Below the pieces are notes generated by a model that had not been told where the DNA came from, searched no databases, and saw only the letters and a list, made by a program, of their open reading frames with translations. The position numbers and the translations under genes are program-made. Shown one piece after another: positions 1-3,458 of a stretch of 3,458 nt of DNA. Every line of letters begins with the position of its first letter. Position 1 is the stretch's first letter. Source of the stretch: Escherichia phage BZ13; sequence record FJ483839.1; one strand, 5' to 3'.

Positions 1-128
1 GGGTGGGACCCCTTTCGGGGTCCTGCTCAACTTCCTGTCGAGCTAATGCCATTTTTTTAATGTCTTTAGCGAGACGCTACCATGCCGTTAGGTTTAGATG
101 ACGGTATATTCCATATACCGGAGGATCT
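1..128 (+). promoter_or_regulatory. 5' untranslated leader of the ssRNA phage genome (replication and translation-control region)
   Basis: Window starts GGGTGGGACCCCTTTCGGGGTCC..., which matches my recollection of the conserved 5' end of MS2/GA-type phage RNAs. No convincing gene starts before the maturation ATG at 129. A CTTCCT element at 31-36 could pair with the maturation gene Shine-Dalgarno. Confidence 0.85.
5..24 (+). promoter_or_regulatory. 5'-terminal stem-loop
   Basis: Seen directly: GGACCCC (6-12) is the exact reverse complement of GGGGTCC (17-23), with a 4-nt loop TTTC (13-16) and a possible G5-U24 wobble. A stable GC-rich hairpin at the extreme 5' end is characteristic of this phage family. 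Confidence 0.75.
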
Positions 129-1301
129 ATGTTTCCGAAGTCAAATATCGACAGAAATTACAAGGTTAAACTTATTTCTTACGACAAGAAGGGGAATCTT
201 GTTTCCGACGACTCTTTTGAGCAAGTCGAAAACTATCTCTTTCAAAACCGTTCGAATACGTATAAACCTGGATATATTCGTCGCGACTTTCGAAGACCAA
301 CTAACTTTTGGAACGGCTATCGCTGTTTCAATCAGCCAGTTGGTACCTTCACTCGGAAACTCTCTGATGGTGGGAGACAAGTTGCTGATTATGGCATTGT
401 GAACCCTAATAAGTTCACTGCCAACAGTCAGCACTTGGGGGACAACATGGTAATTTACCCTGGTCCCTTCTCTATAAATATTGATCAGCGTGCTTCTGTC
501 GAAGTCCTCAATAAGCTTTCACAGTCGAACCTCAATATTGGGGTTGCGATTGCTGAGGCTAAGATGACTGCTTCATTACTCGCTAAGCAATCTATAGCTC
601 TCATCAGAGCCTACACTGCTGCAAAGCGCGGTAATTGGCGAGAGGTGTTTTCTCAACTCCTCATCTCCGAACACCGTTTCAGAGCTCCTGCTAAGGATCT
701 CGGAGGTCGATGGCTCGAACTGCAGTACGGTTGGTTACCCCTTATGAGTGATTTGAAAGCTGCATATGATTTGCTCACGCAAACCAAACTGCCTGCTTTC
801 ATGCCCTTGAGGGTTACCCGCACCGTTGGCGGAACGCACAATTATAAAGTGCGCAACGTCGAATCTGCAGGGGATACTTGGTCCTATAGCGATCGTTTGT
901 CGGTGAATTACCGAATATGGTATTTCATTTCCGACCCGCGACTCGCATGGGCTAGTTCCCTTGGGCTTCTTAACCCTTTGGAAATCTACTGGGAAAAGAC
1001 GCCCTGGTCGTTCGTTGTTGACTGGTTCTTACCTGTCGGTAATCTTATAGAAGCCATGAGTAATCCTCTTGGCCTCGACATTATTTCCGGCACGAAGACC
1101 TGGCAACTTGAATCAAAACTTAACGCGACGCTTCCGGCTCCGGGTTGGTCTGGAACTGCAAAGTTGACTGCATATGCGAAAGCGTATGACAGATCGACTT
1201 TCTATTCCTTCCCCACCCCGTTGCCGTACGTGAAATCTCCACTTAGTGGGCTTCACCTAGCGAATGCGTTAGCCTTAATCAACCAACGCCTGAAAAGGTA
1301 A
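129..1301 (+). CDS. mat: Maturation (A) protein, 390 aa: pilus-binding and RNA-binding virion protein
   Basis: 390-aa ORF with GGAGG (120-124) upstream of the ATG at 129. The translation has blocks I recognise from the MS2 A protein: RGNWR, GRWLELQ(Y/F)[29 protein letters not shown], and a C-terminal ALALI-QRL. Position (first gene) and length fit the family. Confidence 0.93.
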
Positions 1302-1317
1302 TTACGGAGTTAGCCAT

Positions 1318-1710
1318 ATGGCAACTTTACGCAGTTTCGTACTCGTCGATAATGGCGGTACGGGGAATGTTACTGTCGTTCCTGTTAGCAATGCCAACGG
1401 CGTCGCTGAGTGGCTTTCTAATAACTCACGCAGTCAAGCTTATCGCGTGACTGCCAGTTATCGTGCGTCAGGCGCGGACAAGCGCAAATACACCATTAAA
1501 CTTGAAGTACCGAAAATCGTTACTCAAGTTGTAAATGGAGTTGAGCTGCCTGTTTCCGCATGGAAGGCTTACGCCTCTATCGACCTGACCATCCCTATCT
1601 TTGCTGCAACCGATGATGTGACCGTTATTTCCAAGTCACTCGCTGGCCTGTTCAAAGTTGGGGACCCTATCGCCGACGCTATCTCTTCTCAGAGTGGCTT
1701 CTACGCGTAA
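1318..1710 (+). CDS. cp: Coat (capsid) protein, 130 aa including the initiator Met
   Basis: ORF preceded by GGAG at 1306-1309, 8 nt before the ATG at 1318. Protein begins MATLRSFVLVDNGGTGNVTVVP... and contains NGVAEWLSNNSRSQAY and LTIPIFA, which matches my recollection of GA-type coat protein and is clearly homologous to MS2 coat (FVLVDNGGTG, NGVAEW, SRSQAY, ELTIPIF). Stop TAA at 1708-1710. Confidence 0.95.
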   Translation: MATLRSFVLVDNGGTGNVTVVPVSNANGVAEWLSNNSRSQAYRVTASYRASGADKRKYTIKLEVPKIVTQVVNGVELPVSAWKAYASIDLTIPIFAATDDVTVISKSLAGLFKVGDPIADAISSQSGFYA

Positions 1711-1901
1711 TGGGTCTGAAAGCAAAACATAAGGAAAACCTATGTTCCGATTCACAGAGATCGAAAAGACTCTATGTATGGATCGCACTCGCGATTGTGC
1801 TGTCCGATTTCACGTCTATCTTCAGTCATTGGATTTGGGGTCTTCTGATCCTCATTCTCCGGACTTTGATGGACTTGCCTACCTTCGTGATGAATGTTTA
1901 A
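1710..1901 (+). CDS. lys: Lysis protein (L-type single-gene lysis protein), 63 aa
   Basis: ORF in a third frame whose ATG (1710-1712) overlaps the coat stop TAA (1708-1710) as TAATG, and which runs 160 nt into the replicase gene. Basic N-terminus (K, H, R rich) followed by a hydrophobic stretch LYVWIALAIVLSDFTSIFSHWIWGLLILIL. The AIVLSDF segment resembles MS2 L (AIFLSKF) and carries the conserved Leu-Ser dipeptide (codons at 1800-1805). Confidence 0.85.
   Translation: MGLKAKHKENLCSDSQRSKRLYVWIALAIVLSDFTSIFSHWIWGLLILILRTLMDLPTFVMNV
1726..1746 (+). promoter_or_regulatory. Coat-protein operator hairpin (translational operator of the replicase gene)
   Basis: Seen directly: AACAUA-A-GG-AAAA-CC-UAUGUU. 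Lower stem 1726-1731 pairs with 1741-1746, A1732 is unpaired (bulge), GG 1733-1734 pairs with CC 1739-1740, loop AAAA 1735-1738. The replicase ATG (1742-1744) lies in the 3' arm. Same architecture as the MS2 operator (ACAUG-A-GG-AUUA-CC-CAUGU). Confidence 0.9.
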
Positions 1902-3340
1902 CTAAACATCCCTCACTCGGAGACAGTAATTCGGACGCACGCCGTAAGGAATTGGCATATGCCAAACTTATGGATAGTGATCAAAGATGCAAAATCCAAA
2001 ACAGTAACGGATACGACTACTCTCATATCGAGAGTGGCGTACTGAGTGGTATACTCAAGACTGCTCAGGCCCTTGTGGCAAACTTGCTTACGGGTTTTGA
2101 ATCTCACTTCCTGAACGATTGTTCGTTCTCCAACGGAGCCTCACAAGGGTTCAAGTTGCGGGATGCAGCGCCGTTTAAGAAGATCGCTGGGCAAGCAACC
2201 GTTACAGCTCCTGCCTATGACATTGCCGTGGCCGCCGTTAAAACGTGCGCACCGTGGTATGCTTATATGCAGGAAACGTATGGCGATGAAACCAAATGGT
2301 TTCGTCGGGTGTACGGCAACGGTTTGTTTTCTGTTCCGAAGAACAATAAAATAGATCGGGCTGCCTGTAAGGAGCCTGATATGAATATGTACCTTCAGAA
2401 AGGGGCGGGATCTTTTATAAGAAAACGCCTTCGCTCCGTTGGTATAGATCTTAATGATCAAACGCGCAACCAGGAATTAGCCCGACTTGGCAGCATTGAT
2501 GGGTCGCTCGCTACTATTGATCTTAGTAGCGCTAGTGACTCCATCTCTGACCGTCTCGTCTGGGATTTACTTCCACCGCACGTCTATTCATACCTCGCTC
2601 GTATTCGCTCGTCTTTCACTATGATTGACGGGCGCTTACACAAGTGGGGTCTATTTTCTACCATGGGTAACGGCTTTACATTCGAACTCGAGTCCATGAT
2701 CTTTTGGGCCCTGAGTAAGAGCGTTATGCTGTCCATGGGTGTTACTGGCTCATTAGGCGTCTACGGTGACGATATAATCGTTCCTGTTGAATGTGCCCCG
2801 ACCCTCCTTAAGGTATTATCCGCTGTGAACTTTCTTCCGAATCAGAAGAAGACGTTTACGACGGGTTACTTTCGTGAGAGTTGCGGTGCTCATTTCTTTA
2901 AAGGCGCCGACATGAAACCTTTTTACTGCAAGCGGCCAATGGAAACCCTTCCCGATGTCATGTTGCTCTGCAACAGGATAAGGGGTTGGCAGACCGTTGG
3001 TGGAATGTCAGATCCGCGGCTCTTTCCGATTTGGAAGGAGTTTGCTGATATGATTCCGCCGAAGTTTAAGGGTGGATGTAACCTGGATCGCGATACTTAC
3101 CTCGTTTCACCTGATAAACCTGGTGTCACACTGGTTCGTATTGCTAAGGTACGCTCTGGTTTTAACCACGCGTTCCCGTACGGCTATGAAAACGGCCGTT
3201 ACGTCCATTGGCTACATATGGGATCGGGAGAAGTTCTCGAGACCATATCCTCCGCCAGGTTTAGGTGCAAACCTAACTCGGAATGGAGAACACAGATCCC
3301 TCTATTTCCTCAGGAATTAGAGGCCTGCGTTCTCTCCTGA
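1742..3340 (+). CDS. rep: RNA-directed RNA polymerase (replicase beta subunit), 532 aa
   Basis: Longest ORF, starting in the operator hairpin. Contains VPKNNKIDRAACKEPDMNMYLQKG, which matches my recollection of MS2 replicase, plus RdRp motifs: IDLSSASDSIS (motif A-like), STMGNGFTFELES (motif B-like), and YGDD at nt 2762-2773 (codons 341-344) as catalytic motif C. Ends with a tandem stop TGA-TAG (3338-3343). Confidence 0.96.
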   Translation: MFRFTEIEKTLCMDRTRDCAVRFHVYLQSLDLGSSDPHSPDFDGLAYLRDECLTKHPSLGDSNSDARRKELAYAKLMDSDQRCKIQNSNGYDYSHIESGVLSGILKTAQALVANLLTGFESHFLNDCSFSNGASQGFKLRDAAPFKKIAGQATVTAPAYDIAVAAVKTCAPWYAYMQETYGDETKWFRRVYGNGLFSVPKNNKIDRAACKEPDMNMYLQKGAGSFIRKRLRSVGIDLNDQTRNQELARLGSIDGSLATIDLSSASDSISDRLVWDLLPPHVYSYLARIRSSFTMIDGRLHKWGLFSTMGNGFTFELESMIFWALSKSVMLSMGVTGSLGVYGDDIIVPVECAPTLLKVLSAVNFLPNQKKTFTTGYFRESCGAHFFKGADMKPFYCKRPMETLPDVMLLCNRIRGWQTVGGMSDPRLFPIWKEFADMIPPKFKGGCNLDRDTYLVSPDKPGVTLVRIAKVRSGFNHAFPYGYENGRYVHWLHMGSGEVLETISSARFRCKPNSEWRTQIPLFPQELEACVLS

Positions 3341-3458
3341 TAGTATCAGGACCTCCCCGGACGGGGTGGGTGTGACCGAAAGGCCACTATGGAGGTGAAC
3401 CCTCCACCGCCCAAAAGGCGGTTCTCGGTGACTAGTTTGCTTGGCTAGTCACCACCCA
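3341..3458 (+). promoter_or_regulatory. 3' untranslated region with replicase-recognition structures and 3'-terminal CCCA
   Basis: No ORF after the replicase stop. GC-rich, self-complementary segments are visible (CCCCGGACGGGG at 3355-3366; GTGACCGAAAGGCCAC at 3372-3387 with a GAAA loop). The window ends ...CACCACCCA, as expected for this phage family. Confidence 0.85.
3429..3451 (+). promoter_or_regulatory. 3'-terminal stem-loop immediately before the terminal ACCACCCA
   Basis: Seen directly: TGACTAG (3429-3435) is the reverse complement of CTAGTCA (3445-3451), with a 9-nt loop TTTGCTTGG (3436-3444). Confidence 0.7.

Follow-up and report, generated by a model that had tools for sequence, protein, structure and literature searches.

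A putative GA-type replicase operator and its coat protein in a genome of Escherichia phage BZ13

Introduction

In FJ483839.1, a sequence record of Escherichia phage BZ13, the start codon of the replicase gene can be drawn in the 3' arm of a small hairpin. The question raised by this locus is whether the hairpin is the element through which the coat protein would shut off replicase synthesis and, if so, whether hairpin and coat protein together have the binding specificity of phage GA or that of phage MS2. A first-pass annotation of the DNA had argued for the former, and the whole stretch of 3,458 nt (here called the window) has now been analyzed computationally with this claim in mind.

The reading favored here, with a probability of roughly 0.95, is that positions 1726-1746 would constitute the operator that controls replicase translation in a GA-like levivirus of group II, bound by the coat protein and combining a GA-type loop with a coat protein that carries Ser87. 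The structure of the hairpin, its position, its identity to the GA sequence, the covariation among its relatives and the residues of the coat protein come from the analysis itself; binding, repression and specificity are carried over from the biochemistry of GA and MS2. An operator of this sequence is already known, since it is the same as the GA operator described in 1986 and 1991, and in this respect there is nothing new. Beyond annotation, then, the result carries little weight: a replicase control element has been identified, and it belongs to what appears to be a standard GA pair.

Genome organization

The window reads as a complete group II levivirus genome. In a megablast comparison with phage records, positions 79-3458 are 94.7% identical to phage GA (X03869 / NC_001426); the corresponding values are 94.3% for BZ13 strain DL10 and ~85% for T72 and KU1, all of these being members of Emesvirus japonicum, the former group II, while MS2 gives only patchy matches. 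The open reading frames follow the canonical levivirus order of maturation, coat, lysis and replicase, with coat, lysis and replicase on the + strand. The maturation gene occupies 129-1301. The coat gene (1318-1710), whose product would be the hairpin-binding repressor, encodes a protein with Ser at the position of MS2 Asn87. The lysis gene (1710-1901) is a 63-aa ORF homologous to the GA lysis CDS at 1717-1908, and the replicase gene (1742-3340), which encodes the RdRp beta subunit and would be the regulated gene, is a 532-aa ORF homologous to the GA replicase CDS at 1749-3347.

The coat stop and the lysis start overlap as UAAUG at 1708-1712, as they do in GA and DL10, an arrangement that suggests coupling of coat and lysis by termination and reinitiation. 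In KU1 and T72 the lysis gene starts 18 nt past the coat stop, and there is an insertion in the intergenic region. A lysis-control stem-loop is marked in the GA record; its counterpart in the window lies at 1676-1700.

A weak hairpin over the replicase start codon

Positions 1726-1746 (+ strand) read AACAUAAGGAAAACCUAUGUU. Their designation as a putative replicase translational operator hairpin and coat-protein binding site draws on the fold, the identity to GA, the annotation of X03869 and covariation. The minimum free-energy (MFE) structure of the 21-mer, ((((((.((....)))))))), has a lower stem formed by 1726-1731 with 1741-1746, an upper stem formed by 1733-1734 with 1739-1740, and a tetraloop, AAAA, at 1735-1738. 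When A1742 of the replicase ATG is numbered +1, loop bases A1735-A1738 are -7 to -4, and A-4 and the purine at -7 are the conserved recognition bases. The replicase AUG lies in the 3' arm, where A1742, U1743 and G1744 are paired with U1730, A1729 and C1728, respectively. Judged by sequence and placement, the probable Shine-Dalgarno (SD) element of the replicase gene is AAGGA (1731-1735), which lies 6 nt ahead of the AUG within the 5' arm and loop and corresponds in position to GAGGA in MS2. The first-pass annotation had described a hairpin over the ATG at 1742 with loop AAAA at -7 to -4, and its coordinates and bases proved exact.

As a structure, the hairpin is thermodynamically weak. The 21-mer folds at -4.2 kcal/mol (z = -2.4), and 5 of 200 shuffled sequences are equally stable; its stability is modestly above chance and by itself would not make the hairpin stand out. 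The hairpin is nonetheless robust to context. It is the MFE structure of 1715-1760 (-7.5 kcal/mol, z = -2.2), the segment whose folding had been proposed as a check; it is kept when flanking sequence of 10 to 500 nt is included, its core pairs having probabilities of 0.94-1.00; and it is retained in the MFE fold of all 3458 nt, a scale at which the support consists of the MFE fold, the pair probabilities covering flanks up to 500 nt. No alternative, more stable structure that captures the ATG was found in contexts ranging from 21 nt to the full genome. The main support for the hairpin is its position, conservation and covariation, and the full binding motif occurs in this genome at this site only, by the scan of the + strand given below.

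The position of the unpaired stem base is less well defined than had been claimed. In the MFE structure as drawn, A1732 (-10) is unpaired. The alternative register is isoenergetic: pairing of A-11 with U-1, which leaves A-10 out, and pairing of A-10 with U-1, which leaves A-11 out, both come to -4.2 kcal/mol and have nearly equal probabilities (0.51 vs 0.48). At 1731-1732, then, one of the two adenines is unpaired while the other pairs with U1741. The earlier assignment of a bulged A to -10 (1732) holds in that there is one unpaired A and -10 is an allowed place for it, but the place is not unique, being degenerate between -10 and -11. This degeneracy is a known peculiarity of GA. The unpaired A can slide between the two positions in GA-type hairpins because -11:-1 is an A:U pair, while MS2, AVE017, L013 and L015 (the last three being relatives considered below) have G:C there and a single register. 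Since the MS2 G-11:C-1 pair aligns with A-11:U-1, the register with A-10 out is the one homologous to MS2.

In its overall design the hairpin has the features of an operator of the MS2/GA class. The 3' arm contains the AUG, and the 5' arm and loop contain the SD; of the 4 loop nucleotides, -4 is A and -7 is a purine; there is a single unpaired purine in the stem, 2 bp below the loop; and the structure is kept in its genomic context and shows compensatory changes in relatives. Within that class it falls in the GA-type subtype, since both -5 and -6 are A, the sequence equals that of the GA reference operator, and an A:U pair at -11:-1 gives the unpaired A two alternative positions. The MS2-type (group I) subtype calls for a pyrimidine at -5 (AUUA) together with a coat protein that has Asn87; the loop here is AAAA and the coat has Ser87.

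The Rfam model for this element might seem to argue otherwise. Against RF02359 (Bacteriophage MS2 operator hairpin), window positions 1725-1745 score 18.1 bits (E = 0.5), aligning with model positions 16-36 only and falling below the gathering score of 40 bits. The GA reference scores the same 18.1 bits, and MS2 scores 61.3 bits; the model includes 17 nt of unstructured upstream flank that are specific to MS2. Because GA falls equally short and the flank is MS2-specific, the shortfall reflects the model rather than the element, and the sub-threshold score was rejected as an argument against operator membership. GA-type and other Emesvirus operators score 18-20 bits in this model (for example, that of L001 at 1732-1752), and routine Rfam annotation would miss them.

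A proposed mechanism of repression

The mechanism proposed for this element follows that of the GA and MS2 operators. The 21-nt hairpin would enclose both the SD (AAGGA) and the AUG of the replicase gene. As coat protein accumulates, a coat dimer would bind the hairpin late in infection, presumably by recognizing A-4, the purine at -7 and the unpaired adenine of the stem. Binding would stabilize the hairpin, block access of the ribosome and so shut off replicase synthesis. The same complex of coat protein and hairpin is probably also a high-affinity site for nucleation of capsid assembly and for packaging.

This last step leads to another reading, in which the hairpin serves mainly as an initiation signal for capsid assembly and packaging and repression is secondary. 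In a scan for the published binding-site architecture (a loop R-N-N-A, a 2-bp upper stem, an unpaired purine and a lower stem), the operator hairpin was the only site on the + strand, with 0.09 sites per genome expected by chance for a 6-bp lower stem; a hairpin that is the sole place in the genome to match the full motif is what a packaging signal might look like. It is also established that the MS2 TR is the highest-affinity packaging signal (PMC4751978, among others). A packaging role is, however, compatible with repression rather than exclusive of it, and the SD and AUG are enclosed exactly as in MS2, a feature for which a pure packaging signal has no need. We therefore regard a primarily packaging function as unlikely and retain translational repression of the replicase as the principal role of the hairpin.

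A second structural element may lie immediately upstream. GAAAGC (1718-1723, + strand), just 5' of the operator, is predicted in the whole-genome MFE fold to pair with GCUUUC (1413-1418), which lies within the coat codons for Trp-Leu-Ser. A duplex search that returns the established pairing of MS2, at about 1427-1434 with 1738-1744, also finds sequences that are different yet complementary in KU1, T72, AVE017, L014 and L015; complementarity maintained by different sequences across lineages suggests covariation of a long-range pairing. We infer that the pairing of 1413-1418 with 1718-1723 may be of the Min Jou type, which would couple replicase translation to that of the coat gene.

Identity to the GA operator and the specificity of the coat protein

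Comparison with published operators places the hairpin beside that of GA. All 21 nt are identical to GA (X03869 1733-1753), KU1, DL10 and T72, and the sequence is also 100% identical in five GA-like contigs from metagenomes and IMG/VR. The X03869 record annotates 1733-1753 as "pot. stem loop structure; pot. binding site coat protein". Since the loop of the GA reference is likewise AAAA, the operator is GA-like, as the first-pass annotation had supposed, and its statement that MS2 has AUUA in the same place was borne out.

The coat protein encoded at 1318-1710 belongs with this operator. Its identity is 97% with the X03869 coat of GA (4 differences) and 60% with the MS2 coat. Of its 129 residues, two depart from the crystallized GA capsid protein, 1GAV: an N to D and an E to D replacement, both in the region of the C-terminal helix. 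When MS2 YLNME is aligned with YASID of the window, Ser stands at the position of MS2 Asn87, and MS2 Glu89 is replaced by Asp; both substitutions are found in all group II coats. Residues V29, T45, S47, R49, K57, T59, K61, E63 and Y85, which contact RNA in MS2 complexes, are the same in the window coat as in the aligned MS2 coat. At 13 of the 14 contact positions tabulated, including Ser87, the window coat matches X03869; the sole exception, Thr59 (Ala in X03869), matches 1GAV.

How these residues would bear on specificity is indicated by older biochemistry. Lim, Spingola and Peabody are said to have mapped, in 1994, the discrimination between MS2 and GA at -5 to residue 87. Gott, Wilhelm and Uhlenbeck reportedly found in 1991 that binding by GA coat depends on A-4, on a purine at -7 and on an unpaired purine, is indifferent to the position of the bulge, and shows no strong preference for a pyrimidine at -5. 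The order of preference of MS2/R17 coat at -5 is C > U >> purines, with purine variants still bound. In the mechanism proposed above, Ser in place of MS2 Asn87 would correspond to the loss of the pyrimidine preference at -5 with which published work has linked it.

The first-pass annotation had gone further and held that MS2 coat requires a pyrimidine at -5. A preference stands, but "requires" is too strong, since complexes with a purine at this position exist and binding to U(-5)G has been seen. The PDB entries tabulated in PMC10610835 include crystallized complexes of MS2 coat in which -5 is A or G (2C50, 2C51) as well as MS2 N87S complexes (2B2G, 1ZSE). In vivo, MS2 coat still binds U(-5)G, and there is marked crosstalk between MS2 and GA coats (bioRxiv 10.1101/168625); GA coat for its part binds the MS2-wt, U(-5)C and U(-5)G sites and acts as a translational regulator (bioRxiv 10.1101/174888). 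A sequence search of the PDB found no complex of GA coat with RNA, and the structural basis of recognition in GA is therefore inferred from MS2 mutants; literature searches on Asn87 or N87S in the context of GA returned a PDB table only. For both the relaxed specificity of GA at -5 and its tolerance of two bulge positions, the structural account still comes from MS2 mutant structures.

Could the coat protein nevertheless have MS2-like specificity, so that an operator with A-5 would be sub-optimal or mismatched? The protein is not identical to GA coat, having the 2 differences from 1GAV and the 4 from the X03869 coat noted above. The differences from 1GAV, however, lie off the RNA-binding beta-sheet, in the C-terminal helix region, and the contact positions agree with X03869, Ser87 included, apart from a Thr59 that is present in 1GAV. 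An MS2-like specificity is accordingly very improbable. Because the operator is identical to that of GA, the coat is 97% identical to GA coat, and Ser87 is present, coat and operator are internally consistent, and the claim of a GA-type specificity and a matched pair is upheld: the evidence supports the view that the pair in this BZ13 genome would be the standard GA pair.

Covariation among Emesvirus operators

Evidence that the stem itself is maintained comes from relatives. An alignment of nine Emesvirus operators, representing seven distinct sequences, has 89% of cells paired and double changes at 3 pairs; shifted registers collapse, and the covariation score was reached by 0 of 500 shuffles. 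The first and last bases of the loop are invariant in the 9 relatives. At -11:-1, the replacement of G:C by A:U is a compensatory change, which supports the stem, and it arose at least twice; there is also a G:U change at -13:+2.

The hairpin sequence is coding in a second frame as well, since the operator lies over lysis codons 6-13 (K H K E N L C S). That the stem-loop is a mere by-product of this overlap (lysis codons 6-13, replicase codons 1-2) with no function at the RNA level is hardly credible: some conservation is expected anyway, because the 21 nt lie within the lysis ORF and overlap the replicase start, and the hairpin is weak at -4.2 kcal/mol, but against this stand the recurrent compensatory changes at -11:-1 together with the G:U change at -13:+2, conservation of the hairpin in AVE017, which has no annotated lysis gene over it, and also in KU1 and T72, in which the lysis gene begins at another place, and the coat binding that Gott and coworkers are reported to have published for GA in 1991.

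Uncultured lineages and a possible matching of coat and operator

Four uncultured Emesvirus relatives, AVE017 (NC_073941) and the metagenomic contigs L013, L014 and L015, have the same hairpin design over the replicase AUG and a coat protein with Ser87. Their coats are 62-72% identical to that of the window overall (62% for L015 and about 70% for AVE017, L013 and L014). The loop is AAAA in AVE017, L014 and L015, and AAUA in L013. The -11:-1 switch recurs inside the AVE017 group, with A:U in L014 and G:C in AVE017 and L013.

Across these lineages, Ser87 co-occurs with A-6 in four (the GA group, the AVE017 group, L015 and L013) and with A-5 in the same lineages except L013; Asn87 co-occurs with AUUA in MS2 and FrBlood. 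This pattern is consistent with a matching of coat and operator, and it is suggestive only, because independent events are few and L013, in which Ser87 goes with AAUA, shows that the association is not strict. The co-occurrence of Ser87 with A-5 may reflect only one or two evolutionary events. It is a tentative and rather doubtful idea that the widespread combination of Ser87 with AAAA is possibly ancestral in Emesvirus, that Asn87 with AUUA is a derived and tightened form, and that residue 87 and positions -5/-6 co-evolve, possibly insulating the repressors of co-infecting phages from one another; the co-occurrence behind it spans 4-5 lineages, with kinship ignored and one exception (L013). 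The natural combinations Ser87/AAAA, Ser87/AAUA and Asn87/AUUA could be used to test co-evolution of coat and operator.

A more distant, Emesvirus-like contig, L017 (Ga0255252_1001044), has a coat protein that is 55% identical to that of the window, with Ile85 and Asp87. Its operator-like hairpin, at 1683-1699, has a G-U/A-C upper stem and the loop AUAA, a different combination of coat and operator.

An MS2-like 5' leader

The first 84 nt of the window set it apart from GA. Identity of positions 1-84 is 100% to the 5' leader of the MS2 isolate DL52 (JQ966307), 97.6% to reference MS2 and only about 37% to GA. The switch comes after a shared ACCATG at 79-84, and from 85 to the 3' end the sequence is GA-like. 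Because 1-84 match the leader of an MS2 isolate and the rest is GA-like, the record has the appearance of a group I/group II chimera, in which a 5' end of group I type precedes a body of group II type. The chimeric leader is still predicted to fold stably, at -53.3 kcal/mol (z = -5.0).

The leader could have come from natural recombination between groups I and II, from RACE / RT-PCR or another laboratory artefact, or from a construct. Chimeric assembly through a k-mer join was considered and is unlikely, since the two sequences share only ACCATG at the junction. A search of IMG/VR for the MS2/GA junction gave no match, and look-ups with the exact maturation and coat protein sequences returned no entry. 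If the MS2-type leader is real, it would matter more than the operator, as it would represent a recombinant between the groups, with a replicase of group II that has to copy from a group I terminus.

A probably spurious 106-aa ORF on the + strand at 82-402 begins at the ATG within the junction ACCATG, in a different frame from the maturation gene.

Comparison with known operators

Among the better known operators outside Emesvirus, the loop has 3 nt and a different bulge spacing in Q-beta, 6 nt in PP7 and 5 nt in PRR1. What the hairpin of the window has in common with these three is the principle only, namely repression of translation by a coat dimer through a small hairpin at the replicase start (PMC3561173). 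Their coat proteins are distant relatives; that of PRR1 (2vf9) matches the window coat with E = 1.5e-5.

The likeness to the TR hairpin of MS2/R17 is much closer. Both have a 4-nt loop with A-4 and A-7, a 2-bp upper stem, an unpaired A-10 and the AUG in the 3' arm, and 17 of the 21 bases are identical. The four that differ from MS2 are -11 (G to A), -6 (U to A), -5 (U to A) and -1 (C to U), so that the AUUA loop, G-11:C-1 pair and single bulge register of MS2 stand against AAAA and A-11:U-1 in the window.

With the operator of GA (group II, Emesvirus japonicum), finally, the window shares all 21 nt, the position of the AUG, the loop and the ambiguity between A-10 and A-11. The two operators show no difference; the genome around them has diverged by ~5%, and its first 84 nt are MS2-like.
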